Shown piece after piece: positions 18,653-35,317 of a stretch of DNA of 35,337 bases. Both the position numbers and the translations under genes were made by a program. This DNA is from a virus, in IMG/VR virus record IMGVR_UViG_3300043754_000046, positions 73,981 through 109,317 of that record; one strand, given 5' to 3'. Positions within the stretch are counted from its first letter, which is position 1. Every line of letters begins with the position of its first letter. The notes below the pieces were generated by a model that searched no databases, was not told the DNA's origin, and worked only from the letters and a program-made list of their open reading frames with translations.

Positions 18653-18701
18653 GTCCGGCAGACGGTTTCCACAGACGTAGGCGCAAAGCCACTGCCGGGC
18701 A
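18653..18701 (+). ncRNA. Mini-tRNA-like element 1
   Basis: GTCCGGCAG/CTGCCGGGC-AC; GGC-GCAAA-GCC variant T-loop. Confidence 0.55.
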
Positions 18702-18743
18702 CAAACTCCCCCGATTTTCCGGGGCGAGTGGAAAGGGGAGGAA

Positions 18744-19028
18744 ATGAGCAACGTTCGTCCGCTTCACCAGCTTCAGGCGCCTATCATTTGGCAGAACTTG
18801 CTTCCCACCATACAGGCAACAAATACGGCGTCCGGACAGGTCTTTGCCTGGCACCCGCAGTATCGGGAGGTCATTCAGGTATTCGACAGTGTTTCGGCGT
18901 TCATGTATGGCGGGCAGTCCGACCTAGTGTTGCCCTTCCCGGAGCGGCTCATCAATCCGGTGAGCGGAGTTCCGGCATTGCATCACTACGTCGAGACGAT
19001 TCGGAAGTATCAGGAACGCCCGCAGTGA
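18744..19028 (+). CDS. Hypothetical protein
   Basis: GAAAGGGGAG RBS. Confidence 0.75.
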   Translation: MSNVRPLHQLQAPIIWQNLLPTIQATNTASGQVFAWHPQYREVIQVFDSVSAFMYGGQSDLVLPFPERLINPVSGVPALHHYVETIRKYQERPQ

Positions 19029-19035
19029 TGCGACA

Positions 19036-19077
19036 GCCCCGAACGGTATTCGGCCGGTTCGACTCCGGCCCGGGGCA
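19036..19077 (+). ncRNA. Mini-tRNA-like element 2
   Basis: GCCCCG/CGGGGC-AC; GGCCGG-TTCGACT-CCGGCC. Confidence 0.8.
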
Positions 19078-19110
19078 CTGATCCGAAAGGGTCTGGAAAG
19101 GGGATAGAAC

Positions 19111-19590
19111 ATGGTGGAGATGCCCAAAGAGTTTTTGGGTCGCCCGGTTGTACGGTCCGTCCAGCACGCCACAGACGAAAGCGAAGCGCCCTACTTCGGC
19201 ACTGTCGTTCTCGACTACGGCAACGGCATTCAAACCGTCATCGACGTGTTCAGTCACGACGGTGAGGTGTGGGGCGGGCAGAATGGTGCCCATCGGATTC
19301 TGGCGGACAGTGCCGAACGGATCTTCGTGGACCGGTGCAAGCGGCGCACCCGGTTCACGCACATGGTCATGGAAGGCAAGTGCACCTGGCTTGCCGTAGC
19401 CATGATGCGCTGGGATTCCATTCCAGTATCCGGCCGTGATGAGTTCACGGTCTATGCCCGCGATGCTGCCGGTAAGGCGCGTGACTTCCTGGAGTTCTAC
19501 TACCCGGTGAACCGGGAGGTTCGGAACGCCATCGAGCGTTGGCTTATCCGGTACTCGGAAGCACACACGCATCCGGACCTGCGCTCATGA
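19111..19590 (+). CDS. Hypothetical protein
   Basis: GAAAGGGGAT RBS. Confidence 0.8.
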   Translation: MVEMPKEFLGRPVVRSVQHATDESEAPYFGTVVLDYGNGIQTVIDVFSHDGEVWGGQNGAHRILADSAERIFVDRCKRRTRFTHMVMEGKCTWLAVAMMRWDSIPVSGRDEFTVYARDAAGKARDFLEFYYPVNREVRNAIERWLIRYSEAHTHPDLRS

Positions 19591-19596
19591 GGTCCG

Positions 19597-19643
19597 GCCC
19601 GTAGCCGCGATGTTGGCGGTAGGCTTCGATGCCACTGCGGGCA
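19597..19643 (+). ncRNA. Mini-tRNA-like element 3
   Basis: GCCCGTAG/CTGCGGGC-AC; GGC-TTCGAT-GCC. Confidence 0.7.
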
Positions 19644-19678
19644 CTGGGAGTCATGCGACTCCGGCAAGGAGGGGAAAC

Positions 19679-19849
19679 ATGAACACGTGGACCGTTACCA
19701 CCTGGGCTTTCTATAACGCAGCGGAAGCTGATCCGCATTACGAGCGGCAGGAGGTTACTTTCACTGGCCTGTCCGAAGAACAAAAGGATCGAATCCTTGC
19801 GCTCTCTGACGACGGACTCAAGTTTGATGCCGAAGCCAAAGAAGAGTGA
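19679..19849 (+). CDS. Hypothetical protein (56 aa)
   Basis: AAGGAGGGG RBS. Confidence 0.7.
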   Translation: MNTWTVTTWAFYNAAEADPHYERQEVTFTGLSEEQKDRILALSDDGLKFDAEAKEE

Positions 19850-19861
19850 CCAAATCGCTCA

Positions 19862-19907
19862 GCCCTAAATGGTTTTCAGGGAGGTTCGATTCCTTCCTAG
19901 GGCACCA
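19862..19907 (+). ncRNA. Mini-tRNA-like element 4 (ACCA end)
   Basis: GCCCTA/TAGGGC-ACCA; GGGAGG-TTCGATT-CCTTCC. Confidence 0.8.
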
Positions 19908-19945
19908 TGCGTGATCCGTCACGCAGCAGCAGGAAAGGGGATGCA

Positions 19946-20173
19946 ATGCCGCACAAAGGCTCGTACACCATGGGCACGCAGGAAATGATCGAGCACATGG
20001 TGACGGAACTTCCTGACAAGTACCTGATGGAGCTAAACCAGTCCGACATGGAGACCCTGATTTGGGGTCTCGGCGCGCACGTAGGCTTTGTAACGCCAGA
20101 TGACGCCATGCAGGACCGGATTTCTTCCCTGTTCTCCAGCATCGCAGAGACGCTGGAAATCGAGGGTATCTGA
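19946..20173 (+). CDS. Acidic hypothetical protein
   Basis: GAAAGGGGAT RBS. Confidence 0.75.
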   Translation: MPHKGSYTMGTQEMIEHMVTELPDKYLMELNQSDMETLIWGLGAHVGFVTPDDAMQDRISSLFSSIAETLEIEGI

Positions 20174-20180
20174 TCCGGCA

Positions 20181-20230
20181 GTGCGCAACGGTTGCCCTTA
20201 TGGGTGAGGGTTCGATTCCCTCGACGCACA
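20181..20230 (+). ncRNA. Mini-tRNA-like element 5
   Basis: GTGCG/CGCAC-AC; two mini-hairpins; GAGGG-TTCGATT-CCCTC. Confidence 0.75.
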
Positions 20231-20269
20231 CTCACTCCCCCGAAATTCGGGTGCGAGTGGAAAGGGGAT

Positions 20270-20956
20270 ATGGAAATGGCATTGAGCACGCGTGAGCGTC
20301 GCATTCGTCGCATCCGTCGCGCACTGCCGATCATTGAGGAGCTGGAGGAGTACACCAAGCAGGTCTATTCCGACAATCTCTTCACCAGCGAGGAGGGGCA
20401 CGATGCCTCTCCTATGTGGCTTGCAACTCCCTTTTCACGATCCCGCGACGCTGAGTTGCGGGAAAAGTGCAACTGGGAAGTCGTGAGTGAGGATCTCCTC
20501 GAACGATTCCCCGACACAGTGTCGAGTCAGACGTTCGGTCACTGGGGGTTCGGCTGGTACGAGCGGCTCTACGTCCGTCGTGACGATGCGCTTGCACTCA
20601 GGGCAGTTCAGGGCTGGGTCGGCACGATCCAGGACACTGGGTTCGCCAGCGAGGAGCGTATCGATGAAGCGGAGCGCGAGGAGTACAACGAGTACCTGTC
20701 ATCGCAGCTCGGTGGGTATCCGGGCAACGATGACGACGAGTACCTCGACCGGGTCCGGCGGTACCTCTTTGAGACGCACAGCGCTGTCCGGAGCGATGAG
20801 GTCGACCAGAGCATGATCAAGGACGCCATCGCTCACGTCCCCCACCCCTACGACGACTGGCAGTGGGGTGAGGGCGAGGACGAGGACGAGCGGGAGTGTA
20901 ACTTCTGCGGTCAGTCCGAGTCAGCCGAGTGCCACAATGAGGCGGCACAGCCCTAG
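20270..20956 (+). CDS. Acidic hypothetical protein
   Basis: GAAAGGGGAT RBS; FGHWGFGWYE motif. Confidence 0.8.
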   Translation: MEMALSTRERRIRRIRRALPIIEELEEYTKQVYSDNLFTSEEGHDASPMWLATPFSRSRDAELREKCNWEVVSEDLLERFPDTVSSQTFGHWGFGWYERLYVRRDDALALRAVQGWVGTIQDTGFASEERIDEAEREEYNEYLSSQLGGYPGNDDDEYLDRVRRYLFETHSAVRSDEVDQSMIKDAIAHVPHPYDDWQWGEGEDEDERECNFCGQSESAECHNEAAQP

Positions 20957-20997
20957 GCCTGGTGGCCTGCGTCCGGGTTCGATCCCCGGATGGGGCG
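20950..20997 (+). ncRNA. Mini-tRNA-like element 6
   Basis: GCCCTA/TGGGGC-GC; GGCC-TGGT-GGCC; TCCGGG-TTCGATC-CCCGGA. Confidence 0.8.
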
Positions 20998-21043
20998 CAA
21001 GTTCGCCCGGAAATTTGGGTGAGCTGGAAGGAGGGGAAACTAA

Positions 21044-21445
21044 GTGACTAATCCGGATGACGCTATTACTCAGGCAGTGGCTACGGCTCGGAGCACTGAG
21101 ACTCCGATCAGTCACGGGGTAGCACGTGCCATTGCGATGCGATTTCAGCCCCAAGGACGTGCCCCATAAGGGCGTGCGGTATATCGCAACGCCTTGAAGG
21201 CATTCATTGCGTCAGGAGTTATGAAGTCAATTAACACCACTCCACCACGATGGAGGCCGCATCCCAGCGCTGAGCTCGATGGCGAACATGCCGTTTGGGC
21301 AGCCGTCTCCGGTGAAGGACAGTGGGTACGGGCGTCCGACGCAGAGAAGGATGTGATGGCCGTATTCGGTGACTACTTGCACAGCCGTAAGCAAGCTGGC
21401 GACCTGGATTCTGTGCCTGGCTGGACAGATCTGCCGATCGAATAA
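21044..21445 (+). pseudogene. Array gene interrupted by in-frame TAA (21167-21169)
   Basis: RBS plus GTG 21044 is in frame with ORF 21194..21445; only one stop separates them. Confidence 0.6.
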
Positions 21446-21447
21446 CA

Positions 21448-21490
21448 GCCCTAAGTGGTTCTCGGCTCGGTTCGATTCCGGGCTAGGGCA
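21448..21490 (+). ncRNA. Mini-tRNA-like element 7
   Basis: GCCCTA/TAGGGC-AC; GCTCGG-TTCGATT-CCGGGC. Confidence 0.8.
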
Positions 21491-21517
21491 CGCAGTAACT
21501 AGGAAAGGGGATATGAG

Positions 21518-21778
21518 ATGTCCGAAGAGCACATCGAAGAGGCGCACAGGCAGCAGCTCGACACGCAATATTTCGAGCCTCCTTACGATCCCATCGCAGA
21601 GATGCATGATGAGCTTCAGGAGCGCATTGACCGGCTCAGCTCAGGGTGCGATGGTCTGTTCCTGATTCTGGACACGGCCAAGCACAACGGTTGGCGTCCG
21701 AACGTCAAGGAGATCAAGGAGCACATCCGGGAGTGCCCGGAGTGCTTCCAGGTCAACTCGGATTTCTTGGACGACTGA
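21518..21778 (+). CDS. Hypothetical protein
   Basis: RBS; HxxxCxxC. Confidence 0.75.
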   Translation: MSEEHIEEAHRQQLDTQYFEPPYDPIAEMHDELQERIDRLSSGCDGLFLILDTAKHNGWRPNVKEIKEHIRECPECFQVNSDFLDD

Positions 21779-21780
21779 CA

Positions 21781-21831
21781 GCCCTAGAGAGACACCAGGT
21801 CTCCTAGTCCGGTGCAACTCCGGCTAGGGCA
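21781..21831 (+). ncRNA. Mini-tRNA-like element 8
   Basis: GCCCTAG/CTAGGGC-AC; GAGAC/GTCTC; CCGG-TGCAACT-CCGG. Confidence 0.75.
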
Positions 21832-21873
21832 CTCAATCCCCCGATTTCCGGGGTCGATTGGAAAGGGGAGGAA

Positions 21874-22164
21874 ATGACGGAAGCTGAGGTTACTCCGGCG
21901 ACTCTGGATGAATACCGGAAGATGCTGGAAGAGATCGGCCTGTTCACACGTGTCGTTGACGGCGGTATCGACGCCGTCTGGTGGCTCGGTATGCGCTCTT
22001 TCAGGCTGGCGTTCCGACGCGCCGAAAACGGCTGGTGGGAAATCCACAGCTTGAACGCATTCGAGACGCTGGACGTGATGCTGTGGTGTTCTGCGTACGC
22101 CAGCGACGACACGCGTGAATTCATCAACAACTGGGTACGCGTTCATCCGCGTGCCAAGCGCTGA
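21874..22164 (+). CDS. Hypothetical protein
   Basis: GAAAGGGGAG RBS. Confidence 0.75.
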   Translation: MTEAEVTPATLDEYRKMLEEIGLFTRVVDGGIDAVWWLGMRSFRLAFRRAENGWWEIHSLNAFETLDVMLWCSAYASDDTREFINNWVRVHPRAKR

Positions 22165-22199
22165 TGGTCGTGGGGCTGGTTCGACTCCAGCCCAGCGCA
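22158..22199 (+). ncRNA. Mini-tRNA-like element 9
   Basis: GCGCTG/CAGCGC-AC; GGCTGG-TTCGACT-CCAGCC. Confidence 0.8.
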
Positions 22200-22234
22200 C
22201 TAGCCCGATTTCGGGTGTAAGAAAGGGGAACGCA

Positions 22235-22615
22235 ATGTCCGACGACGTCCGATACCAGGGCGAGCAGATCAGCGGCTACCGGATCACCGGTGAGCACGTC
22301 CAGGAGCTCGCTAACGCATTCGGTAAAAACGTCCTCGTGGTGCAGCCCGGTACCGCATTCCTGTGGGTAATCGGCACCGGCAATAAACACTACGAGGGCG
22401 CCCGGACTGTGTACGCCACCAGTGAACAGGTTGTCGAACTGGCCGCCGAGGAGGACTACGACTCTGAGGGTGGGCTGACCATTGAGGCGGCATGGCGCAT
22501 CGCTGGCGAGATCGAGCGTGAGGGCCGTGCCGCCGCACAGGCGTCTGCTTACACGATGCCCTACTCGGACGGCTTCAGTGCGCGTGTCATGAACACCATG
22601 CACAACGATGATTAA
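22235..22615 (+). CDS. Hypothetical protein
   Basis: GAAAGGGGA RBS. Confidence 0.78.
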   Translation: MSDDVRYQGEQISGYRITGEHVQELANAFGKNVLVVQPGTAFLWVIGTGNKHYEGARTVYATSEQVVELAAEEDYDSEGGLTIEAAWRIAGEIEREGRAAAQASAYTMPYSDGFSARVMNTMHNDD

Positions 22616-22618
22616 TCA

Positions 22619-22674
22619 GTCACCCACTCCCCCGCGAAATCGGCGGGCACGGATCAGATCCGAGGGTGGGACCA
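22619..22674 (+). ncRNA. Mini-tRNA-like element 10 (degenerate, ACCA end)
   Basis: TCACCC/GGGTGG..ACCA; CGG-ATCAGAT-CCG. Confidence 0.5.
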
Positions 22675-22711
22675 TGCGGATATCCACTCCGCAGCAGGAA
22701 AGGGGAGATAG

Positions 22712-23221
22712 ATGATCGCTGAAAACCGCTCCGTGGCCTTCCTGGTCTACGTCGGCACGACGTTCGATGTGAACGGAAACCGGCGCAAGGGCTGGGTGGT
22801 CTACAACACGGACGGGGAGCGCATCGACTTCGTCCAGGAGGACGCAAGCGGCGATGGCCCGTTGCTCGAATCCGGGTACGCCGCGTTCCGCAAGATGGAC
22901 GAGTCCATCAGGATCACCGAGGAGGAGTGGGAGAACCTCTCCAACCTAGCCTCCTACCCGGCGTCGTCGCGCAAGTTCGACAATCTGTTGGCTGAGAAGC
23001 TGTGGGATTTGTCCCTCAGCAGCAACCAGGACGCCGACCTGGGCGACTCCGAGACGTTCGGCTGGTATGCGCTCTTCAAGGGTGACAGTGCCATCCTTAA
23101 CACGAACTCCCAGGGCTTCGTGTCCGTCTCGGTATTCGAGTCCGAGGAGGAGGCAGAGAAGAAGTGGGAGGAGCTGGAGAACGAGTACAGCGAGTTCTGC
23201 GGTGATGACGAGGAGGAGTAG
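22712..23221 (+). CDS. Acidic hypothetical protein
   Basis: GAAAGGGGAG RBS. Confidence 0.8.
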   Translation: MIAENRSVAFLVYVGTTFDVNGNRRKGWVVYNTDGERIDFVQEDASGDGPLLESGYAAFRKMDESIRITEEEWENLSNLASYPASSRKFDNLLAEKLWDLSLSSNQDADLGDSETFGWYALFKGDSAILNTNSQGFVSVSVFESEEEAEKKWEELENEYSEFCGDDEEE

Positions 23222-23230
23222 TCCTCGTCA

Positions 23231-23274
23231 GCCTGTCTGAGTAAGACTCCGCCGGTTCGTGACCGGGACAGGCA
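23231..23274 (+). ncRNA. Mini-tRNA-like element 11
   Basis: GCCTGTC/GACAGGC-AC; CCGG-TTCGTGA-CCGG. Confidence 0.75.
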
Positions 23275-23311
23275 CTAGCCCCGAATTTCGGGGTGAGGAA
23301 AGGGGATAGCA

Positions 23312-23563
23312 ATGACCGAATGCATGAATGGCTATGACGGCACAATCCGGCACCGTGAGTACACGGAAGCCATGTACCGGGTGCAGACGTCGGAAGCTTT
23401 CGCACAATCCACCTGGTGCCCGGACTGCCTGATTCAGTACGTCGAGTCCGGCATGGGGTCGTGTGTCGAGTACGTGGGGCTCCTGGAGCCGCTGAAGACT
23501 CAGGAGGACCGCGACAAGCACGACAAGGTTTTGGGACTCGGCCTCAACGTCGAACAGCCCTGA
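23312..23563 (+). CDS. Hypothetical protein
   Basis: RBS; WCPDC. Confidence 0.75.
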   Translation: MTECMNGYDGTIRHREYTEAMYRVQTSEAFAQSTWCPDCLIQYVESGMGSCVEYVGLLEPLKTQEDRDKHDKVLGLGLNVEQP

Positions 23564-23602
23564 TCTGGTGATCTCGCCGGGGTCCGATTCCCCGGCTGGG
23601 CA
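23557..23602 (+). ncRNA. Mini-tRNA-like element 12
   Basis: GCCC/GGGC-AC; GATC-TGGT-GATC; GCCGGGG-TCCGATT-CCCCGGC. Confidence 0.8.
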
Positions 23603-23639
23603 CGAGCCCGATTTTCGGGTGAAGGAAAGGGGAGGAAAT

Positions 23640-23864
23640 ATGTATCACCCTGACATGGGTACGCTCGCCCAGTTCGTTGGTGAGCAGCCCTACGAGTCTC
23701 CCGCTTTCGTTCCTGGTGTGGATTTCGATCCTTGGGATCCGGAAGAAGTGGAAATCGTCGGACTGGCAACGGAAATCCACCGACACGACAAGATGCGGCG
23801 TCTTGAAGAAGAGAACTCTCGTCTCCGGGCGCGACTTGCCGAACTGACCGACGGCAACGAGTAA
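23640..23864 (+). CDS. Hypothetical protein with coiled-coil tail
   Basis: RBS; RRLEEENSRLRARLAEL. Confidence 0.75.
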   Translation: MYHPDMGTLAQFVGEQPYESPAFVPGVDFDPWDPEEVEIVGLATEIHRHDKMRRLEEENSRLRARLAELTDGNE

Positions 23865-23883
23865 CGCGAACATGGTCTAAGCA

Positions 23884-23925
23884 GCCCCGTATTGGCTGAA
23901 CACGGTTCGAATCCGTGGCGGGGCA
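23884..23925 (+). ncRNA. Mini-tRNA-like element 13
   Basis: GCCCCGT/GCGGGGC-AC; CACGG-TTCGAAT-CCGTG. Confidence 0.8.
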
Positions 23926-23964
23926 CTTTGTGCTGCCCGAAAACGGGAGCACATGAGGGGAGGA

Positions 23965-24195
23965 ATGATGGAGGGATTCATTCACGATTCGATGACGTTC
24001 AAGGTCAGACTACTGACCTCGTGCTGTTCGACATGCGCAGAGCTCATCGAGATCATGTTCGTGCCTGCGGAGTTCGCTCCGTTCATGCCGGACGTACCGA
24101 CGTACCGCGCGGCCGAGGCTCAGCGCGGGGAGTGGGACCAGGAGCACGCCAGGGAGTGCAAGCAGTCACGCCCTTGGCACCTCACAGCGGTGTGA
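23965..24195 (+). CDS. Hypothetical protein
   Basis: GAGGGGAGG RBS. Confidence 0.7.
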   Translation: MMEGFIHDSMTFKVRLLTSCCSTCAELIEIMFVPAEFAPFMPDVPTYRAAEAQRGEWDQEHARECKQSRPWHLTAV

Positions 24196-24200
24196 CCGCA

Positions 24201-24253
24201 GCCCTGATCCGCATCCGAGGCGGACGGCCGGTGCGAGTCCGGCCAGGGCACCA
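24201..24253 (+). ncRNA. Mini-tRNA-like element 14 (ACCA end)
   Basis: GCCCTG/CAGGGC-ACCA; TCCGC/GCGGA; GCCGG-TGCGAGT-CCGGC. Confidence 0.8.
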
Positions 24254-24294
24254 TGCGTCCCTGTTGGGCGCAGCAGCAGGAAAGGGGAGAGCAC

Positions 24295-24696
24295 ATGGGC
24301 AAGTACGTGGTCGTTCTCGATGAGAAGGACGAGCCCACCCAGGAAGACACTGCGTCCCACATCTTCGGTGCGATCCCGCACACCTATGACTGGTGGCGGG
24401 GGATCACGGAGCACTGGGACACGCAGGACGCTCCCGACGGGTGGACAGCGACGATCCGCGTCACCGACCCGGAGGACGAGAACGAAGAGCGGACGATCGT
24501 CAAGACGATCACCCACACCGACCTCATGGACGCGATGCGGAAGATCATCAGCGGTGAGATCGGCGAGGATGTGACCGACTCGTGCAAGGGCGCGTGCCGG
24601 GACTTCGTCTTCAACCGCGACGCGGCCGACTTCGACGCGGCCACCTCCGACGAGGTACTCCAGGTCGCGGTACTCGGAAAGGTCGTCTACTGCTGA
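24295..24696 (+). CDS. Acidic phage protein
   Basis: RBS; DFDAATSDEVLQVAVLGKVVY tail. Confidence 0.8.
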   Translation: MGKYVVVLDEKDEPTQEDTASHIFGAIPHTYDWWRGITEHWDTQDAPDGWTATIRVTDPEDENEERTIVKTITHTDLMDAMRKIISGEIGEDVTDSCKGACRDFVFNRDAADFDAATSDEVLQVAVLGKVVYC

Positions 24697-24702
24697 GTGC
24701 CA

Positions 24703-24756
24703 GCCCAGCGAGGGCCCCGGATTCCGGGGCGACGGGTGCGAGTCCCGTCCTGGGCG
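24703..24756 (+). ncRNA. Mini-tRNA-like element 15
   Basis: GCCCAG/CTGGGC-GC; GACGGG-TGCGAGT-CCCGTC. Confidence 0.8.
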
Positions 24757-24820
24757 CTAGGACCCCTGACTGTCGGCGGGTCCTACTAGGCTGCGGCCTA
24801 GTGAGCAAAGGGGATAGAAC

Positions 24821-25147
24821 ATGAGTGAGGACAGGACACCGCCCGGCATGTACTACGCGGGCTCCAAGCATGGCATGGGCCTGGCCACGCACAACGTCGC
24901 GGTCTGGTTGGAGAACGAGCCGGGCCTCCTGGAACGGGCGCGTGAGATCGTCGCCAAGGGTGGTGACGACCTGCTCCGGCAGTGGGTGACGTTCCTGTGG
25001 TACGGAGCCCCGGAAGGCGGCTTCAATCTGAACGACGAGCCCAAGCACGACAGTCGGATCGTCTTGAACCTCAAGACAGACACCGACCGGGACGCCTTCC
25101 GAAGGATCGACTGGCAGTACGTACGCGAGTCCGTGAACGCCGAGTAA
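24821..25147 (+). CDS. Hypothetical protein
   Basis: AAAGGGGAT RBS; similar motifs to 25745..25999. Confidence 0.78.
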   Translation: MSEDRTPPGMYYAGSKHGMGLATHNVAVWLENEPGLLERAREIVAKGGDDLLRQWVTFLWYGAPEGGFNLNDEPKHDSRIVLNLKTDTDRDAFRRIDWQYVRESVNAE

Positions 25148-25149
25148 CA

Positions 25150-25197
25150 ACCCCAGGTCTGGTGACCTCCTTCCCGGTTCAATTCCGGGATGGGGTA
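25150..25197 (+). ncRNA. Mini-tRNA-like element 16
   Basis: ACCCCA/TGGGGT-AC; GGTC-TGGT-GACC; TCCCGG-TTCAATT-CCGGGA. Confidence 0.8.
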
Positions 25198-25242
25198 CTG
25201 GGCAGTCCGGAGCCCGAAATCCGGAAATGGAAAGGGGAGGGC

Positions 25243-27533: not shown

Positions 27534-27537
27534 GACA

Positions 27538-28429: not shown

Positions 28430-28436
28430 GTACGCA

Positions 28437-28485
28437 GTCTCTCTCCCGACATGGTCGGGCATCCGCGTCATGGCGGGGAGAGGCA
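28437..28485 (+). ncRNA. Mini-tRNA-like element 22 (degenerate T-loop)
   Basis: GTCTCTC/GAGAGGC-AC; CCCGAC/GTCGGG; CCGC-GTCATG-GCGG. Confidence 0.6.
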
Positions 28486-28535
28486 CAGGGCTGCCCCGGG
28501 GCCCGAAATCCGGGAAGGAAAGGGGAGGGAAACAA

Positions 28536-28925
28536 ATGGAGACTGAGGACCGCACTCAAGACGTCTGGTTCGCCACGGTCACTCTCAGGAACTCCGAGGG
28601 GCAGACCACCGACACGAAGAAGGGGCTGGTGGATCTGCCCCGAGCGATGCCTGCGAGCGAAGCGGCGAAGTATCTTGTCCGCCTCATCGTCAGGGAGACC
28701 ACACGGTTCGGTGGCCTGTGGTACACCGGCGAGCCTCCGCACGAGGTTCACGCTGTCGCCTGGAGCCGCCGAGACAGTGGCAGTGATCGGTACCAGCGGG
28801 CCGGATCTCTGGCTGAGTACAAGGAAGATCGCGACGCCTACATGCATCCTCCCGTACTGGGAAGCGGATGGCGCGAGGTTGGTGCCCACGAGGGCACATC
28901 CTTCATCGAGCTCGACTGGCAATAG
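28536..28925 (+). CDS. Hypothetical protein
   Basis: RBS before ATG 28536. Confidence 0.75.
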   Translation: METEDRTQDVWFATVTLRNSEGQTTDTKKGLVDLPRAMPASEAAKYLVRLIVRETTRFGGLWYTGEPPHEVHAVAWSRRDSGSDRYQRAGSLAEYKEDRDAYMHPPVLGSGWREVGAHEGTSFIELDWQ

Positions 28926-28932
28926 TGCCATA

Positions 28933-28970
28933 GCTCCGACTGGCGAAGAGGTTCGATTCCTCACGGAGCA
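28933..28970 (+). ncRNA. Mini-tRNA-like element 23 (38 nt, smallest)
   Basis: GCTCCG/CGGAGC-AC; GAGG-TTCGATT-CCTC. Confidence 0.75.
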
Positions 28971-29007
28971 CGAGGGGGTGCACATTCCCCCGGAATTGGG
29001 GAAATTG

Positions 29008-29505
29008 ATGAATAGTCTTGAGCTGCGGACGCTTATCCACACCGCGCTCAATGGGAAGGCAGGTACGCAGTACGGGGACATCCTCACTGTGGATCCCATC
29101 CCACCGGTTCCCGGGAGCCCCGTTCAACTGCGGGTGGCTGCCCCTGATCCGGTCGGTGAGCGGCGGGTCCACGTCGTCTCCGTCGCCGACGAGGCACTGG
29201 AACTGCCCGACCGCAACCCGGCTGTCAAGATGGCTCTCAAAGCGGCTCAGCGACTTGCTGAAGAGGCGCAGAAGCAACGCGCACGGGTTGAGGCACAGGG
29301 CCGGAACCCGGAGCAATCCAAGGGCGTTACCAAGGCCGACGCGGAGTACAACGGGGCACTGACGGTCCTGGCACACGTCCTCGCAGGCGCTGGCGCCGAC
29401 ATCCTCATCGAGGAGCTTCCGTCACTGGAACTGGCCGAGGTATACCTCGGCCAGTGGGATAAGAAGCGTCACGTTGCCGCGTTCAAACGTGCGATGCAGG
29501 ACTAG
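29008..29505 (+). CDS. Hypothetical protein
   Basis: Start placed after element 23. Confidence 0.72.
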   Translation: MNSLELRTLIHTALNGKAGTQYGDILTVDPIPPVPGSPVQLRVAAPDPVGERRVHVVSVADEALELPDRNPAVKMALKAAQRLAEEAQKQRARVEAQGRNPEQSKGVTKADAEYNGALTVLAHVLAGAGADILIEELPSLELAEVYLGQWDKKRHVAAFKRAMQD

Positions 29506-29512
29506 CAGTTCA

Positions 29513-29557
29513 GCCTGCCGCCCGACTTTGCGGGTGGGTTCAAAGCCACGGCAGGCA
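29513..29557 (+). ncRNA. Mini-tRNA-like element 24
   Basis: GCCTGCCG/CGGCAGGC-AC; CCCG/CGGG; GTTCAAAG loop. Confidence 0.65.
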
Positions 29558-29592
29558 CGAGGGCCAATCGGCCCCGAGGAAAGGGGAGGCAG

Positions 29593-29829
29593 ATGGACGA
29601 GGAAGAGCTGAAGTGCCTGGACACGCCCTCCGGCGGCTGCTCCGGCAGCGTCGAGATGCGCTACCCGCTGTCCGGCACGGGCAAGTCGTTCCCGCGCTGC
29701 AACGCGCACTGGGAGAAGCGGCTCGACAAGCAAGAGGAGATCAACCAGAGGTACGCGCCGTTCTCCGACGTTCCGCCCGCTGACTTCGACCCGACGTACG
29801 CGGGCGAACGCTGGGAGGACGACTACTGA
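29593..29829 (+). CDS. Conserved actinophage small protein
   Basis: CSGSVEMR..GKSFPRCNAHW..DFDPTYAGERWEDDY. Confidence 0.82.
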   Translation: MDEEELKCLDTPSGGCSGSVEMRYPLSGTGKSFPRCNAHWEKRLDKQEEINQRYAPFSDVPPADFDPTYAGERWEDDY

Positions 29830-29837
29830 GCAGCACA

Positions 29838-29890
29838 GTCCGCTCCCCCGCATCAGGCGGGCGGCCGTTCGCGACGGCGGGTGGGCACCA
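29838..29890 (+). ncRNA. Mini-tRNA-like element 25 (ACCA end)
   Basis: GTCCGCTC/GGGTGGGC-ACCA; GCCG-TTCGCGA-CGGC. Confidence 0.75.
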
Positions 29891-29932
29891 TGTTCCCGAT
29901 TTTCGGGAGCAGTTGGAGAAGGGGAGGGCCAC

Positions 29933-30028
29933 ATGGCCAAGAACGGCAGCGGCAAGAAGAGCAACAAAAATGGCGGATCCCAGAAGGGATCCGGCAACGG
30001 CTCCGGCCCGCGCACAACCCGTAAGTGA
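29933..30028 (+). CDS. 31-aa Gly/Ser/Lys/Asn-rich microprotein
   Basis: GAAGGGGAGG RBS; MAKNGSGKKSNKNGGSQKGSGNGSGPRTTRK. Confidence 0.65.
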   Translation: MAKNGSGKKSNKNGGSQKGSGNGSGPRTTRK

Positions 30029-30034
30029 GAACTT

Positions 30035-30349
30035 GTGGAACGCATCAGCCGAAAGGCCTGGCAACTCAAGGATCACGAATTGCTGATCACCGCTGGGACG
30101 TATGAGGAGTTCGACCATCCTCGGGAGATCTCTTCGGTAGCGGTGACAGGCCCGGATGTCCGGGTCTCATTCACGGACGGCAGCCAGCACAAGGTATTCA
30201 ACCGGGATGCAGAGGTGTTCATCGTGGACACCTTCCGCTCCCCGAACGTGACGGCGGAGACCAAGGAGTGTGCCAACTGCTCCGATCCGATGCCGAAGGA
30301 CAGCGTGCACACCGAGTGCAGGCGCTGCCGGACGCGTCCACTGGAGTAG
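30035..30349 (+). CDS. Hypothetical protein with C-terminal zinc ribbon
   Basis: CANC..CRRC. Confidence 0.7.
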   Translation: MERISRKAWQLKDHELLITAGTYEEFDHPREISSVAVTGPDVRVSFTDGSQHKVFNRDAEVFIVDTFRSPNVTAETKECANCSDPMPKDSVHTECRRCRTRPLE

Positions 30350-30355
30350 TGGGCA

Positions 30356-30403
30356 GCCCTGACCCGGTAATGCCGGGCTCCCAGCTCACGACTGGGCAGG
30401 GCG
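30356..30403 (+). ncRNA. Mini-tRNA-like element 26
   Basis: GCCCTG/CAGGGC-GC; CCCGG/CCGGG; CCCAG-CTCACGA-CTGGG. Confidence 0.68.
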
Positions 30404-30440
30404 CTGATTCCCGATCCCGGGAGTCTGGAAAGGGGAGGAC

Positions 30441-30800
30441 ATGTATTTGGAAGAGAAGGTCGATAAGATCCTTGAGCTCGTATCCCAGGACCGGAAGCCG
30501 CTCAACTGGAGCGACCTCATGAAGGAAGCGCGGACACTGGCGCCGGACCTCAAGGTCGAGTTTCTTCAGGCCATGGGGTTCACGCGGTCGGGTTCCAGGC
30601 ACACCAGGAGCTGCGCCAGCATTCAGGGCAGCGGGCTCATCTGCACCTGCGTTCAGCCTGAGTCTGAATGGAGCCACCCGAAGGACGTCCGCGAGTTCCT
30701 CCATGAGACGCCGGAGGAGCGCCAGGAGGCCACTCGGAAGCGGATCCGCGCCGAGGAGGACCCCTACGACGCGGACCGGTGGGAGTCCGTGCATGGATGA
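30441..30800 (+). CDS. Hypothetical protein
   Basis: GAAAGGGGAGG RBS. Confidence 0.75.
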   Translation: MYLEEKVDKILELVSQDRKPLNWSDLMKEARTLAPDLKVEFLQAMGFTRSGSRHTRSCASIQGSGLICTCVQPESEWSHPKDVREFLHETPEERQEATRKRIRAEEDPYDADRWESVHG

Positions 30801-31152
30801 GCCTGAATACGACCGATCCTCGATCATCGACAAGGAGACAGGACTTCCTCGTCTCCTTAAAGAGCAGTGCGCCACGTGCGTCTTCCGCTCCGGGAATCTG
30901 ATGCACCTGGACAAGGGGCGTCTGAAGGAGATGATCGACGCAAACAACACCAACGGTTCGTGGATCACGTGCCACGAGACGCTTCCCTGGGGTCACTACC
31001 CCGAATTCGGCGAAGCGATCTGCCGTGGTTACTACGACACCAACGGCGACAACTCGTGGGGCGTGCGTCTGGCCAAGTCCGAGGCCGAGCGTAAGGGTCT
31101 GCCCGGTCTTCCTGAGGTAGATGCACCGCCGGACCCACGAGAGCAGCAGTAA
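30793..31152 (+). CDS. Cys/His zinc-binding hypothetical protein
   Basis: CATCVFR..ITCHET..AICRGY. Confidence 0.78.
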   Translation: MDEPEYDRSSIIDKETGLPRLLKEQCATCVFRSGNLMHLDKGRLKEMIDANNTNGSWITCHETLPWGHYPEFGEAICRGYYDTNGDNSWGVRLAKSEAERKGLPGLPEVDAPPDPREQQ

Positions 31153-31202
31153 GCCCAGCCCCTATTTCGGGGGCCAGCGAGGTTCGAATCCTCGGCTGGG
31201 CA
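31153..31202 (+). ncRNA. Mini-tRNA-like element 27
   Basis: GCCCAGC/GCTGGGC-AC; CGAGG-TTCGAAT-CCTCG (canonical 7+5 bp). Confidence 0.82.
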
Positions 31203-31230
31203 CGCAGTACAACTCAAGAAGGGGAGGGAC

Positions 31231-32205
31231 ATGACTGCACAGGTGATTGACCTGTTCTCGCGGCAGCAGGTCCGGAAGGAGTCCGTACTTTCGGTGGTTC
31301 CCAAGCCGCCGGACTTCGTTCCCGTCTTGTCCGCTGACCAGCTGGTCTCCTACTACCTGCGACGGTTTACAGGAAAGACCGAAACCGAATACACACGGGA
31401 CATGGAGCAGTTCCGTGAGTTCCTTGATGACGCATACGGAATCGACGTGTATGACGTCTTCGAGTATCACGTGGACGACTGGAAATGGTACGGGCTCGAA
31501 GAGCTGAACGGAGCCAAGGCGTCTGTCCGCAGGCGTATGAGCAGCGTTCAGGGCATGTACCGGTACGCGATGGCCTCTGGCTACTTCAACCGGGATCCAT
31601 TCTTCGGGGTGAAGAAGCCCAAGGTCGGCAACAACGTCCAGTACACCGGCCTGAACCTCAGCGACCTCAAGCGCCTGACGTACCACGTACAGAAGGAGTG
31701 CGACCTGCGGACGCAGGTCGTGGTGTTCGGCATGCTGCTGACAGGCCTCAGGGTTTCAGAGCTGCTGAACGTGGACATTGAAGACCGATGGCCTGATGGC
31801 GGTGTGCTGAAGCTGCGTGTGACCCGCAAGGGCGGGAAGCCTGACGCGGTGGAGCTGCCGCGCAAGGTCGCTGGCATGGTCAACGAGCTCGTTGGCGATC
31901 GTTTGACGGGTCCGCTACTCCTCGGAGATCAGGGCAAACGCTTGGCACCACAGGTCGCCTGGCGTATCGTCCGTCGCGTGGGTGATCGCTACCTTCCGGA
32001 CATGGCTGGAAAGCTGCACCCGCACGACGCGAGGCACAGCTTCGTTTCCGGGGTACTCCTGGTGACGGACCACGACCTCAAGGAGGCTCAGTGGCGGGCT
32101 GCCCACGCCGACATGAACAACACAGTGCGCTATGCACATGCCTTGCAGAGGGCGGAGAGCACAACCGTGGAGGAGCTCGCATCCGTCTTCGGCATCGGCG
32201 CCTAG
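31231..32205 (+). CDS. Tyrosine recombinase/integrase (XerC/D-like)
   Basis: Full catalytic set: TGLRVSE, RKGGK, HDARH, AHAD, TVRY; N-terminal core-binding domain. Confidence 0.92.
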   Translation: MTAQVIDLFSRQQVRKESVLSVVPKPPDFVPVLSADQLVSYYLRRFTGKTETEYTRDMEQFREFLDDAYGIDVYDVFEYHVDDWKWYGLEELNGAKASVRRRMSSVQGMYRYAMASGYFNRDPFFGVKKPKVGNNVQYTGLNLSDLKRLTYHVQKECDLRTQVVVFGMLLTGLRVSELLNVDIEDRWPDGGVLKLRVTRKGGKPDAVELPRKVAGMVNELVGDRLTGPLLLGDQGKRLAPQVAWRIVRRVGDRYLPDMAGKLHPHDARHSFVSGVLLVTDHDLKEAQWRAAHADMNNTVRYAHALQRAESTTVEELASVFGIGA

Positions 32206-32211
32206 CTCACA

Positions 32212-32263
32212 ACCTGGTCCCGTAATTCGGCGGGCAGGCGGGGTTCGAATCCCCGGCCAGGTG
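32212..32263 (+). ncRNA. Mini-tRNA-like element 28
   Basis: ACCTGGT/GCCAGGT-GC; CGGGG-TTCGAAT-CCCCG. Confidence 0.8.
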
Positions 32264-32288
32264 CGCACAGGAGTATGGGGAGGCGTGC

Positions 32289-32780
32289 ATGAGTAAGAGT
32301 GAAGTGGATGATGGCCTTCGTGGCGTGATGACGTTCAAAGACCGTTCCGAAGCTGATGATTTCATACTCGACCTGCCGAAGATCCTGAGGGAACTCAAGC
32401 TGGATTACCGGTTCGACACGGTGTGGGCTCCTCGCGTGGTTACGGAAAGATGGCAACGCGGTCGTAACGCTAGAATCTCTAGCATTTACTACGAAGTCTG
32501 CATGCGGGACAAGTTCCCTGACGCAGCACCGCCCAACATTACTGCGAATGACATCTCCGCAGCATGGCGCCGCGTAAAATACCTCGACCAGCTTCCTGAC
32601 GTAGGCAGGCAGCAGAGCAAGGGGAGAGGCCAGCAGTACGAGGCCCTCGGCCAGCGCATGACCATTGCCCAGTGGGCACGCGCAATTGGGGTTACTCCTT
32701 CCGCGCTGAGCCAGCGCCTCAAAACAGGGCAGACCATGGAGGATGCAATTAAAGCTATTGCGCTAAGAAAATCGGCTTAA
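32289..32780 (+). CDS. Putative HTH DNA-binding protein
   Basis: GQRMTIAQWARAIGVTPSALSQRLKTG. Confidence 0.75.
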   Translation: MSKSEVDDGLRGVMTFKDRSEADDFILDLPKILRELKLDYRFDTVWAPRVVTERWQRGRNARISSIYYEVCMRDKFPDAAPPNITANDISAAWRRVKYLDQLPDVGRQQSKGRGQQYEALGQRMTIAQWARAIGVTPSALSQRLKTGQTMEDAIKAIALRKSA

Positions 32781-32803
32781 CAGCCTGGGCCCTGTGCCCA
32801 CCA

Positions 32804-32849
32804 GGCCCACCACTCAGCTTTGGAATCCCCTTTCCCTGAGTGGTGGGTC
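32804..32849 (+). other. 14-bp hairpin whose loop is antisense to the array RBS
   Basis: GGCCCACCACTCAG/CTGAGTGGTGGGTC; loop contains ATCCCCTTTCC. Confidence 0.55.
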
Positions 32850-32893
32850 CGGTGGTTTCAGGGAACTGTGCAGAAAGGAATACAGAAGTGACA

Positions 32894-33193
32894 ATGCGCA
32901 AGGTCGCCTTGCCCGTGGACGTCGTAAGCGGCTTGATTGAAGGCGACGCGATGGCTAATCAGTACTCCGAGATCGATATGACCGCGCACACGCTACTCCG
33001 CGACGCGCTGAGGTCCATGCAGCCCTACAAGCAGATCCTCGCCCTTGAAGCAGACGAGAAGCTGCTCCGGCACATTGCCGACTACCTTGACGGCCTGTGC
33101 GAACCGGGTTACCCGACGAAGGACCGCTTCGGATTTCAGAAGGCCGCCGCCCGGCAGGCATGTGAGCTGATGCTGTTCCAGCTCGACCAATAG
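32894..33193 (+). CDS. Hypothetical protein (start GTG 32888 or ATG 32894)
   Basis: GAAAGGAA RBS. Confidence 0.72.
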   Translation: MRKVALPVDVVSGLIEGDAMANQYSEIDMTAHTLLRDALRSMQPYKQILALEADEKLLRHIADYLDGLCEPGYPTKDRFGFQKAAARQACELMLFQLDQ

Positions 33194-33199
33194 TGGTAA

Positions 33200-33249
33200 G
33201 CCCAGCCCAGATTTCGGGGGCCCTGAGGGTTCGAGTCCCTCGCTGGGTA
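33200..33249 (+). ncRNA. Mini-tRNA-like element 29
   Basis: GCCCAGC/GCTGGGT-AC; GAGGG-TTCGAGT-CCCTC. Confidence 0.8.
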
Positions 33250-33272
33250 CGCACACGGAAAGGAAGATAAGA

Positions 33273-34361
33273 GTGGGTGTTGTTAAGCCCTCCGAGTTGC
33301 CCGATTTCCGGCGGAAGACAATTCGCTGGCTGGACGATTACGGCGCTCGCATCTGGCAAGTCGGACATGAGGGGCATAATCCGTACTACATTCCGCCGGA
33401 CCTTCAGGGCCTGCCCAACGAAGTCGTCTTCCCGGAACTGGTGGCGCGGACGCGTAGGACTTTGGCGCAGGCTCGCCTGTATGCGGTGACGGAGGAAATG
33501 ACATACCTGGCTCTCAAGACGGGAATGCCGCGCTGTCACGTGCCTAGCGACATCCTTCCTCATGATGAGGGGATTGTTGTTTGGGCGAAACCGATTGGCA
33601 CCGCCGAAGATTTCACTCCCCCACTGATTACTCATGGGGATGAAGTATTGGGCATGGTGGTCAGCGAGTGGTGGACACGCATGGACCTTGACCAGTCCAT
33701 TCCTGTGGTTGCCGCATCCTGGAAGGTCGTACCGGAGCGGAACGAGGTATTCGTGTGGTTCTACACGCTTCGCAGCGATCTGGCACGAAAACAGCGTCTG
33801 ACCGGTAGGGAATACGAAGAGTGGGCACAGTACGCGCCGCCCATGATGTTTGAGCGGGAACAGGTGATCCCCCTCGATCGAGAAATCGCCTGGTTCACAT
33901 CCGAGGATGAGGAACGGCTCCGCCTGAGCGCTTATGCCGCGATGACGTCTGACACGGAACTGCGCAGGAAAAGGGATCTCAACGTGCTCCCGATGATGGA
34001 GCAGATGACCAAGGCTTTGGTCGCGACCTGGCACCTCATGGCTTCCAAGATGGCATCCAGGTCGACCATTCCCACCGATGGCAAGACTCGACGCGCCGAG
34101 CGACGGGAAGGCGTATCCACCAACTCCAGTTCGGTTGGCGTGCAGGTAATCAAACTTGGCAGCAAGATCCGCACTCAGAAGCCACGTGAGGGTGAGCCAG
34201 CCTTCCGATGGAAGAAGCGGCGGATCGTCGGGCCCTTCGTGCGGCAACAGTGGTACCCGTCCGAAGAGACGCACAAGCCCAAGCTCATCGAGCCGTACGT
34301 TGCAGGACCTGAGGGAGCTCCAATCAGCAACGCCGAGAAGGTCTACCTCTTGAGCGAATAG
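33273..34361 (+). CDS. Conserved actinophage hypothetical protein
   Basis: C-terminal RRIVGPFVRQQWYPS..H.PKLIEPYVAGPEGAP motif. Confidence 0.82.
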   Translation: MGVVKPSELPDFRRKTIRWLDDYGARIWQVGHEGHNPYYIPPDLQGLPNEVVFPELVARTRRTLAQARLYAVTEEMTYLALKTGMPRCHVPSDILPHDEGIVVWAKPIGTAEDFTPPLITHGDEVLGMVVSEWWTRMDLDQSIPVVAASWKVVPERNEVFVWFYTLRSDLARKQRLTGREYEEWAQYAPPMMFEREQVIPLDREIAWFTSEDEERLRLSAYAAMTSDTELRRKRDLNVLPMMEQMTKALVATWHLMASKMASRSTIPTDGKTRRAERREGVSTNSSSVGVQVIKLGSKIRTQKPREGEPAFRWKKRRIVGPFVRQQWYPSEETHKPKLIEPYVAGPEGAPISNAEKVYLLSE

Positions 34362-34384
34362 CAGGACACGAAATCTGCCATCAC

Positions 34385-34432
34385 CCTGCTCCCCCGCTTT
34401 TGGCGGGCGCCGGTTCATGACCGAGAGCAGGA
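34385..34432 (+). ncRNA. Mini-tRNA-like element 30
   Basis: CCTGCTC/GAGCAGG-AC; CCCGC/GCGGG; CGG-TTCATGA-CCG. Confidence 0.72.
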
Positions 34433-34469
34433 CTGAGCTATGCAGCACCATCATGAGGAAGGGAATGTC

Positions 34470-35258
34470 ATGGCTGGATTGCTTCCGCAGAACCGGGGCA
34501 ATAAATCGGCTACTCGTATCGGTCCTGTGGTAGCACGGCGACTGAAGAAAGCCGGAATCAACGTCTCATCGGCCGCACGCAAGGGGCGGAGCCAGGGAAT
34601 CTTTGTCTCAGCTCGCGGCGACCGGATTTCAGTTCTCATCGATCTCGATAGGCCCGAACCCATTATCAGCGAGCAGGCTTCGGAGATCGCAGCAGTCGTA
34701 ACCTCTTGGGGCCTCACCCCCGAGATCAGCGTCCGCAAAGTGGAGTCTGGCTTCATCGGCAATGTACGCTTCACACACCCGCTGCCTGCCCCAAAGGACT
34801 CCGCCCCTCGTCCTGCCAGCAAGGCTGCCGCAGACGACACCGAGTGGGGGCGCATTCAGAAGTCCACGGTCCACTCCGCTCTTCTTGCGGCTGGCCTCTG
34901 GACCGACGAGGGCTACACGACGGAGCAGGAGTCGACCACCCTCGTCCGGATCTCGTTCTCCGACGCTTCGCCGGAGCGCGATGAGCTCGTCGGCAAGGCG
35001 GAAGCAGCCCTCATCAAGAAGAAGTACAACGTTCAGCACGAGGACGGCAGTCTGATCGTGCGGAAGGCCAAGAAGCCGAAGAAGTTGTCGCCTCAGGAAC
35101 GAATGGCTCAAGCGGCTGCGGCCGTGGAAGCAGCTCCTGCCACACCCAAGCCTCCTGCCGAAGACCTCGGGAAGCCGGTCTACCACAAAGTAACAAAAGA
35201 GCTTGTTGGGTATCTGAGCAAAAAGCGGTTCATCTCGATTGAAGAGGTGCCAGAGTAA
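34470..35258 (+). CDS. Hypothetical protein
   Basis: GAGGAAGGGA RBS before ATG 34470. Confidence 0.78.
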   Translation: MAGLLPQNRGNKSATRIGPVVARRLKKAGINVSSAARKGRSQGIFVSARGDRISVLIDLDRPEPIISEQASEIAAVVTSWGLTPEISVRKVESGFIGNVRFTHPLPAPKDSAPRPASKAAADDTEWGRIQKSTVHSALLAAGLWTDEGYTTEQESTTLVRISFSDASPERDELVGKAEAALIKKKYNVQHEDGSLIVRKAKKPKKLSPQERMAQAAAAVEAAPATPKPPAEDLGKPVYHKVTKELVGYLSKKRFISIEEVPE

Positions 35259-35265
35259 CCCCACA

Positions 35266-35317
35266 CCTGCTCCTCCGGCTCCGGCCGGACGACGGTCCAT
35301 GACCGAGAGCAGGACCA
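35266..35317 (+). ncRNA. Mini-tRNA-like element 31 (ACCA end)
   Basis: CCTGCTC/GAGCAGG-ACCA; TCCGGC/GCCGGA; CGG-TCCATGA-CCG; near copy of element 30. Confidence 0.72.

Follow-up and report, generated by a model that had tools for sequence, protein, structure and literature searches.

Anticodon-less tRNA-like elements in the spacers of an actinophage gene array, candidate signals for cutting a polycistronic RNA

Why should a phage place a small tRNA-like fold, without an anticodon arm, in almost every gap of a long array of genes? The question is raised by IMG/VR virus record IMGVR_UViG_3300043754_000046, a soil actinophage. The DNA analysed here is the last 35 kb of this 109,317-bp record (positions 73,981 to 109,317; 35,337 nucleotides in all, called the window below and numbered from its own first letter). 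About 39 small genes lie co-oriented on its plus strand at 17300-35258, each with a strong purine-rich Shine-Dalgarno sequence before it, and spacers make up 3.3 kb of this 18-kb array. Most of the longer spacers contain an element that we call a mini-tRNA. We consider it rather probable, judging from the evidence given below, that these elements are tRNA mimics at which host RNase P, together with a 3' nuclease, would cut a polycistronic RNA.

A mini-tRNA was found on the plus strand in 31 of the 33 spacers of at least 50 nt between 18653 and 35313. The elements, numbered e01 to e31, are 37-53 nt long and share one order of parts: an acceptor-like stem of 4-9 bp, a linker of 9-22 nt, a T-arm with a stem of 3-7 bp and a loop of usually 7 nt, and the 3' acceptor strand, which follows immediately or after one bulged base. 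The linker between the two stems is either single-stranded with a YGG motif or folded into a small hairpin, and an anticodon arm is absent in all 31 cases. All 358 curated pairs are Watson-Crick or G-U pairs (16 are G-U). The split between acceptor and T stem ranges from 4/7 to 9/3, but the total of the stack stays at 11-13 bp: 21 elements have 12 bp, eight have 11 and two have 13. About 17 loops are of the canonical TTCGA or TCCGA type and five of the TGCRA type, while several of the remaining elements have no T-loop. Position 3 of the loop is a C in 26 of the 27 loops of at least 6 nt; in real tRNAs, the C at this position pairs with the D-loop.

The flanks of the elements are uniform as well. 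A purine occupies position 73 in 31 of 31 elements (26 A, 5 G) and C74 follows in every one of them, with ACCA present after six. Position -1 is an A in 29 of 31 and could pair with position 73 in none, and position +1, a G in 24 of 31, is always paired. Every element lies on the coding strand between a stop codon and the next Shine-Dalgarno sequence. Its start is located -7 to +23 nt relative to the stop codon, most commonly at 6-7 nt, and elements are missing where genes overlap.

A first-pass annotation of this DNA, made from the letters alone, had described about 31 anticodon-less elements in nearly every spacer, with an acceptor stem, a T-arm and a stack like those of a tRNA, and with R-C after all of them and ACCA after six. 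This anatomy and these counts agree with the curated elements, all 31 of which were found again on the plus strand. Other parts had to be revised. The number 31 mixes about 20 canonical with about 11 divergent elements, and the length of 38-56 nt is 37-53 nt when measured. The near-constant stack is real, but the 11-12 nt given for the strand from T-loop to discriminator, with splits from 5+7 to 8+4, become 11-13 bp and 4/7 to 9/3.

Could such folds arise by chance in spacers of this kind? Under a strict definition (perfect pairs, a 7-nt loop, a stack of 11-12 and the R-C flank), 21 of 32 spacers contain an element. The corresponding figure is 0.35 in dinucleotide-preserving shuffles, one in the reverse complement and zero in 26 coding windows. 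Elements with unlike linkers have 5' strands that MAFFT fails to align, and a covariance model was therefore seeded from four equal-length copies and then iterated, which gave models built from 4, 13 and 78 sequences (the seed and two rebuilds). The models recover 20 elements at E < 1e-3 and two more at E of about 0.07, all of them on the plus strand and in spacers of the array. A search of the genome's other 74 kb with the models returned nothing, even at E up to 10.

The alignment of 78 copies from 20 loci also shows how the pairing is maintained. Pairing is possible in 96.5% of its cells, compared to 67% in shuffled and about 50% in slid controls; fitting of the alignment to the model inflates the 96.5% figure, and the margin is large nevertheless. 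Compensatory changes occur at all 12 pairs, in 272 cells, which bears out the covariation that had been claimed from the window. We conclude from these comparisons that the structure of the element is real and its covariation very strong. About 20 canonical mini-tRNAs are solid, and about 11 divergent relatives have the architecture only.

Are the elements tRNAs, or do they belong to an RNA family that is already known? ARAGORN detects neither a tRNA gene nor a tmRNA in the window or in the whole genome, and the tRNA model RF00005 has no match at E up to 10 in 16000-35337. One hallmark of a tRNA is present, namely a T-arm that stacks on the acceptor stem and has a 7-nt loop of the T-Psi-C-R-A type, and another, the cloverleaf with an anticodon arm, is absent. 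The elements also have the features of RNase P model minihelices: a coaxial stack of about 12 bp, a position -1 that is unpaired with the discriminator, and a pair between positions +1 and 72. Other tRNA-like RNAs were considered and rejected. The tRNA-like domain of tmRNA does not fit, given that ARAGORN calls no tmRNA and that the third acceptor pair is mostly C-G in the stems inspected and not G3:U70. Degenerate tRNA pseudogenes, tmRNA-like domains and attP fragments were ruled out because the 5' acceptor strand is present and covaries. The only tRNA-like match in Rfam is mascRNA-menRNA (RF01684), which hits e15 alone (24702-24756) with 19.7 bits against a gathering score of 42.5 and an E-value of 7.5; e15 is thus not a member of that family. 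No family in Rfam 15 matches the mini-tRNAs, and in the open-access full-text literature we found no description of tRNA-like punctuation in phages, just as the first-pass annotation knew of none.

Is the array an isolated case? Megablast and blastn searches of the array against GenBank phages found no close relatives, and tblastn with its 362-aa protein gave no match. In IMG/VR there was no match for two array proteins or for the hairpin-plus-Shine-Dalgarno pattern of the leaders described below. A pattern describing the element itself, in contrast, hit 108 loci in IMG/VR, about 90 of which are mini-tRNAs of 41-63 nt and not tRNA genes, and several contigs carry same-strand arrays of them. 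In a 71-kb phage (L098), 12 copies follow the modular order stop codon, mini-tRNA, A-C, hairpin, Shine-Dalgarno sequence, start codon, with hairpin and Shine-Dalgarno sequences that are wholly unlike those of the array studied here. In another IMG/VR phage (L070, 3480-5542), four genuine tRNA genes are clustered on one strand, and a mini-tRNA of that strand lies among them at 4794-4839.

Mini-tRNAs are also present, unannotated, in cultured actinophages, where every copy is intergenic and lies on the coding strand. Gordonia phage Morgana contains 12 of them, oriented with transcription in each arm of a divergent region, and the Gordonia phages ObLaDi and Aleemily possess the same array. Two copies each were found in Mycobacterium phage HINdeR and Streptomyces phage Dagobah, and BLAST matches exist in further phages, e.g. 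Corynebacterium phage StAB. When bacterial genomes were searched with the same pattern, 97 of 120 hits were real tRNAs and about 12 were mini-tRNAs, all in Actinomycetes (Streptomyces, Nocardia, Herbidospora, Actinoplanes and Nonomuraea), where they probably lie in prophages. Between Morgana, ObLaDi and Aleemily, orthologous copies share 96-100% identity, whereas the matched stretches of array around them are about 83% identical, and one of the differences turns a G-U pair into a G-C pair. On the strength of this comparison, we conclude that selection acts on the mini-tRNA itself. ObLaDi differs from Aleemily (L240 3731-4219 versus L241) by one extra gene, gene 151, and one extra mini-tRNA, which suggests that genes enter and leave such arrays as units of a gene plus its punctuation mark.

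What could a fold in this position do? An indication comes from the first three spacers of the array, which are filled by ribozymes. Three full-length matches to the self-cleaving Pistol ribozyme (RF02679, model positions 1-68) lie on the plus strand at 17865-17933 (62.4 bits against a gathering score of 34.5), 18137-18203 (70.2 bits) and 18428-18496 (68.5 bits). They are the only Pistols, and the only Rfam hits above threshold, in the window, and no Rfam family passed threshold in the other 74 kb. In a mini-tRNA array of another phage (L079), a type II hammerhead (Hammerhead_II) sits on the stop codon, 18 nt before the next start. Pistol and hammerhead ribozymes thus fill the same kind of slot as mini-tRNAs, and since self-cleaving ribozymes occupy equivalent slots, the idea that the mini-tRNAs are sites of cleavage gains indirect support. 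For hammerheads that flank single prophage genes, it has been proposed, and demonstrated in vitro, that they cleave long phage RNAs into mRNAs the length of one gene (Perreault et al. 2011, PMC3088659). Such ribozyme-punctuated prophage operons use the slot after the stop and before the next ribosome-binding site, as the mini-tRNAs do, and the purpose proposed for them is the same. Mini-tRNAs differ from hammerheads in having no catalytic core; they would need host enzymes, and their products would carry 5'-phosphate and 3'-hydroxyl ends instead of a 5'-hydroxyl and a cyclic phosphate.

Enzymes that could act on such folds are well known. Bacterial RNase P cleaves model substrates that consist of an acceptor stem and a T-arm, and synthetic minihelices of this kind were reportedly described as its substrates by McClain, Guerrier-Takada and Altman in 1987. 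With the synthetic minihelices the phage elements share the coaxial stack of about 12 bp, the T-loop and the R-C(CA) 3' flank. They differ from them in being natural, in being embedded in mRNA and in having an extra linker or small hairpin, which may mimic the D-loop side of the elbow. Among the natural RNAs with a tRNA-like fold that RNase P and RNase Z process are t-elements, which occur in haloarchaea too, and mascRNA. The t-elements of plant mitochondria are tRNA-like structures at mRNA ends (PMC1920247). Like the mini-tRNAs, t-elements are tRNA-like folds that do not serve decoding and lie in the flanks of mRNAs, and formation of 5' and 3' mRNA ends by RNase P and RNase Z has been proposed or shown for them. 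The phage elements are much smaller (37-53 nt, no anticodon arm), occur 31 times in 17 kb, and are coupled to a hairpin and a Shine-Dalgarno sequence. Mitochondrial tRNA punctuation likewise has tRNA-shaped units between cistrons as marks for cuts by RNase P and RNase Z, but those marks are functional tRNAs, whereas the phage elements cannot decode. In mascRNA and menRNA, a tRNA-like module is excised from a longer RNA by the same two enzymes; unlike the phage elements, mascRNA is eukaryotic and nuclear, present once per transcript and equipped with a reduced anticodon stem. What sets the array apart is its density (31 elements in 17 kb), the Pistols that accompany them, and the occurrence of the element in actinophages that are available in culture.

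The GC contents at codon positions 1, 2 and 3 of the array genes average 0.61, 0.43 and 0.74, and the open reading frames are therefore real genes. Scans of the array proteins against Pfam and PHROGs assigned almost no families. The exceptions are a few PHROGs families of unknown function and a Phage_integrase-family protein, a tyrosine recombinase that is encoded inside the array at 31231-32205. None of the phage's own TAAC-type promoter motifs lies inside the array. Since there is no excess of promoter-like or terminator-like sites within it, and a gene-free region of about 1.7 kb lies upstream, the array is likely to be transcribed as one or a few long transcripts. The phage genome encodes no CCA-adding enzyme, no RtcB and no nuclease of the metallo-beta-lactamase fold (RNase Z type), so host enzymes would have to act.

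The leaders between the elements and the genes have features of their own. In 25 of 31 leaders, a stable hairpin follows 0-5 nt after position 74; the leaders that do not have one are 24-29 nt long. The leaders behind the Pistols are presumably about 25-30 nt long, as estimated on the sequence from the position at which Pistol cuts, and are thus close in length to the hairpin-less leaders. Reading of the spacer sequences by eye revealed no separate hairpin in the Pistol leaders. A hairpin would suit the protection of an mRNA with a 5'-monophosphate, whereas Pistol leaders would start with a 5'-hydroxyl. The hairpin repeated after many mini-tRNAs (leaders in 18703-35337) is a 13-nt palindrome of the type CCCGA-A/T-rich-TCGGG, and the same hairpin forms P3 of all three Pistols (17905-17927, 18176-18195 and 18469-18490); it may bind a protein, or its sharing may reflect recombination between spacers. 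A second type of leader, which starts with ATGCG directly after ACCA, is found behind most of the six ACCA elements.

Starting from the structure, the covariation, the strictly intergenic and co-oriented placement and the spread among actinophages, all of which are observed, we infer each cleavage step of the following model. The elements would be transcribed within one long early or accessory mRNA and act on it as processing signals. Host RNase P would recognise the stack of about 12 bp, the elbow formed with the T-loop and the unpaired A(-1)/R73-C74 flanks, and would cut directly 5' of the element, 0-20 nt past the upstream stop codon. A 3' cut would probably be made at or just after position 73, by RNase Z in most copies and by an endonuclease plus exonucleases in the six copies with ACCA. 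The result would be a single-gene mRNA that starts with a protective hairpin followed by the Shine-Dalgarno sequence, and a released mini-tRNA of about 45 nt. In a few slots, the cut would be made by self-cleaving ribozymes, for which no host enzyme is needed. What the elements conserve (the stack of about 12 bp, the C of the T-loop, the unpaired -1/73 and C74) is what all tRNA end-processing enzymes read. A wider claim would be that actinophages use a general and apparently undescribed tRNA-punctuation system, in which mini-tRNAs of 40-50 nt recruit RNase P and a 3' nuclease to produce single-gene, hairpin-protected mRNAs, can be interchanged with self-cleaving ribozymes and travel as gene-plus-mark cassettes. 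Our confidence in this wider claim is evenly divided.

Several observations weigh against the cleavage model. The covariance models miss nine elements (e01, e03, e10, e18, e22, e24, e25, e30 and e31), several of which have a short or palindromic loop in place of a T-loop. When whole spacers are folded by minimum free energy, no more than 14 of 31 elements retain at least 80% of their curated pairs, and the case thus rests on covariation and not on thermodynamics. Eight elements have stacks of only 11 bp. The first-pass annotation had invoked a contact of R73-C74-C75 with RNase P RNA; R73 and C74 are present in 31 of 31 elements, but C75 in only six, so the full RCCA contact with RNase P RNA (L15 loop) is mostly missing. 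A C at position 74 is not favourable for RNase Z and C75 is not conserved, which makes it uncertain whether the 3' side is cut and the mini-tRNA set free. Upstream mRNAs, moreover, would be left with an unprotected 3' end by a cut on the 5' side of the element. Of about 27 phage loci with mini-tRNAs that were scanned, only two contain ribozymes, with none in the 14 further loci and the Morgana-group arrays. Finally, the sequence of the leader hairpin, where it recurs as P3 of the Pistols, sits upstream of the Pistol cut, and the hairpin may for this reason have another role, e.g. protein binding.

A rival explanation, which we regard as unlikely, is that the elements are not excised but serve as structural insulators or stabilisers. 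In one version, RNase P makes a single cut, and the mini-tRNA is kept to cap the 5' end of the downstream mRNA with a base-paired structure; the second version has no cut, and exonucleases, Rho loading or ribosome read-through from one cistron to the next are stopped by the fold. A universal C74 without a universal C75 fits a contact with RNase P without efficient 3' cutting. The spacer structures are GC-rich and stable (median z-score -2.6), and protection from Rho in untranslated gaps would be useful in an array that has no terminators. A generic insulator, however, needs no T-loop, no fixed stack of 11-13 bp and no unpaired -1/73. If the mini-tRNA were retained, the 25 of 31 leaders that have a hairpin after position 74 would not need it, and slots of the same kind are occupied by self-cleaving ribozymes, for which no activity but cleavage is known.

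These ribozymes release no tRNA-like RNA, and this speaks against the idea that the purpose of the array is the released mini-tRNAs themselves. They would be trans-acting decoys or sponges for host tRNA-binding factors (e.g. acceptor-end-modifying toxins of defence systems, the CCA-adding enzyme or RNase P), and their intergenic position would merely multiply the copies. Thirty-one copies on one early transcript, six of them with an encoded ACCA end, would suit a decoy, as would a family that is phage-specific (about 90 of the 108 pattern matches in IMG/VR versus about 12 of 120 in bacterial genomes). We nevertheless think this explanation quite improbable: the acceptor stems differ among copies and have no conserved identity elements, many phages have only one or two copies (HINdeR, Dagobah), and the Pfam and PHROGs scans found no defence or anti-defence gene linked to the array. 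Decoy activity is possible as a second function, for which we found no support. A role at the DNA level is highly improbable. The elements would then be recombination sites or cassette boundaries similar to attC, perhaps used by the tyrosine recombinase at 31231-32205, whose gene inside the array favours such a role. Many small, unrelated and co-oriented genes, each followed by a structured repeat, would look like cassettes, and so would the additional gene and element by which ObLaDi differs from Aleemily. But the core sites of integron attC (RYYYAAC/GTTRRRY) occur in none of the spacers on either strand, the T-loop motif is specific to tRNA, the elements follow transcription in divergent operons, and single elements are found in phages that have no such recombinase nearby. 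G-U pairs, and changes from G-U to G-C, make sense only in coding-strand RNA, which also speaks against the DNA-level explanation.

If the mini-tRNAs are indeed cut by RNase P and RNase Z, phages would have a mitochondrion-like mode of punctuation in gene expression that depends on the tRNA-processing enzymes of the host. Thousands of unannotated structured spacers in actinophage genomes would be explained, and the intergenic self-cleaving ribozymes of phages, whose function has long been unclear, would gain a concrete functional partner. For synthetic biology in Actinobacteria, the elements could serve as small insulators of polycistronic constructs that work through an enzyme. Culture collections already contain carriers: Morgana, ObLaDi and Aleemily with arrays, HINdeR and Dagobah with one or two copies. 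The family would also indicate gene boundaries and strand where an array consists of genes without known relatives, and it belongs in the RNA databases.

The individual elements, all on the plus strand, are given here with coordinates and acceptor/T splits from the curated table and with bit scores and E-values from the covariance models R2 and R3 (R3 unless stated). A 6/6 split is found in e02 (19036-19076, canonical T-loop, 55.0 bits), e04 (19862-19903, canonical T-loop, ACCA, 49.1 bits), e06 (20950-20996, 39.4 bits), where the stop codon falls within the acceptor stem, e07 (21448-21489, 49.0 bits), e09 (22158-22198, 53.6 bits), which overlaps the stop codon, e15 (24703-24755, TGCRA-type loop, 40.2 bits), e16 (25150-25196, 37.8 bits), whose D-like hairpin has a TGGT loop, e19 (27036-27079, TGCRA-type loop, 36.8 bits) and e20 (27538-27578, 51.5 bits). 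The split is 7/5 in e13 (23884-23924, 45.5 bits), e27 (31153-31201, 47.3 bits), e28 (32212-32262, 38.5 bits) and e29 (33200-33248, 47.0 bits), 7/4 in e08 (21781-21830, TGCRA-type loop, D-like hairpin, 31.8 bits) and e11 (23231-23273, 20.2 bits, E 0.07), and 8/4 in e21 (27982-28024, 43.8 bits). Shorter acceptor stems occur in e14 (24201-24249, 6/5, TGCRA-type loop, ACCA, 42.8 bits), e26 (30356-30402, 6/5, 20.1 bits, E 0.07), e23 (28933-28969, 6/4 with a bulge, 44.2 bits), e05 (20181-20229, 5/6 with a bulge, canonical T-loop, 38.6 bits), e17 (25655-25704, 5/6, ACCA, 31.0 bits) and e12 (23557-23601, 4/7 with a mismatch, 45.8 bits), the last of which overlaps a stop codon.

Among the divergent elements, three obtain low scores: e01 (18653-18700, 9/3 with a bulge, 5-nt loop, 12.4 bits, E 2.1), e03 (19597-19642, 8/3 with a bulge, 12.5 bits in R2, E 3.2) and e24 (29513-29556, 7/4, 8-nt loop, 13.4 bits, E 1.3). 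Missed by the models are e10 (22623-22670, 7/5 with a bulge, 3-nt loop, ACCA), e18 (26230-26275, 5/6, TGCRA-type loop), e22 (28437-28484, 7/5, 6-nt loop) and e25 (29838-29886, 8/4, ACCA, divergent loop), all of them divergent, as well as e30 (34385-34431, 7/4 with a bulge, no T-loop) and its paralogue e31 (35266-35313, 7/4 with a bulge, ACCA, no T-loop).

One of the only two long spacers without a mini-tRNA is located at 32781-32887. At its start is a 6-bp stem with C-A before it and C-C behind it, after which comes a perfect 12-bp stem-loop, and its Shine-Dalgarno sequence is weaker and atypical. The 6-bp stem may be a decayed element, and the spacer may be an internal transcript boundary. 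Outside the array, the mini-tRNA model gives weak matches of about 100 nt on the minus strand of 8816-9766 (8816-8917, 8918-8997, 9584-9689 and 9713-9766; E 0.04-2.6), none of which is called by ARAGORN.

A few minor observations concern the genes and the region ahead of them. The gene calls in 21044-21445 are doubtful: the 41-codon open reading frame at 21044-21169 has an atypical GC content of 0.45 at third codon positions, and the spacer that follows it (51 nt) contains a simple hairpin only. In the gene-free region upstream of the array (15400-17300), a motif of about 16 nt is directly repeated near 15850-15910 and a 10-mer occurs in tandem near 16320-16340; both are likely to be regulatory sites for the divergent early promoters. 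A 31-codon open reading frame at 29933-30028, whose product is a very basic peptide with a high content of Gly, Ser and Lys, has its own mini-tRNA, hairpin and Shine-Dalgarno sequence upstream.

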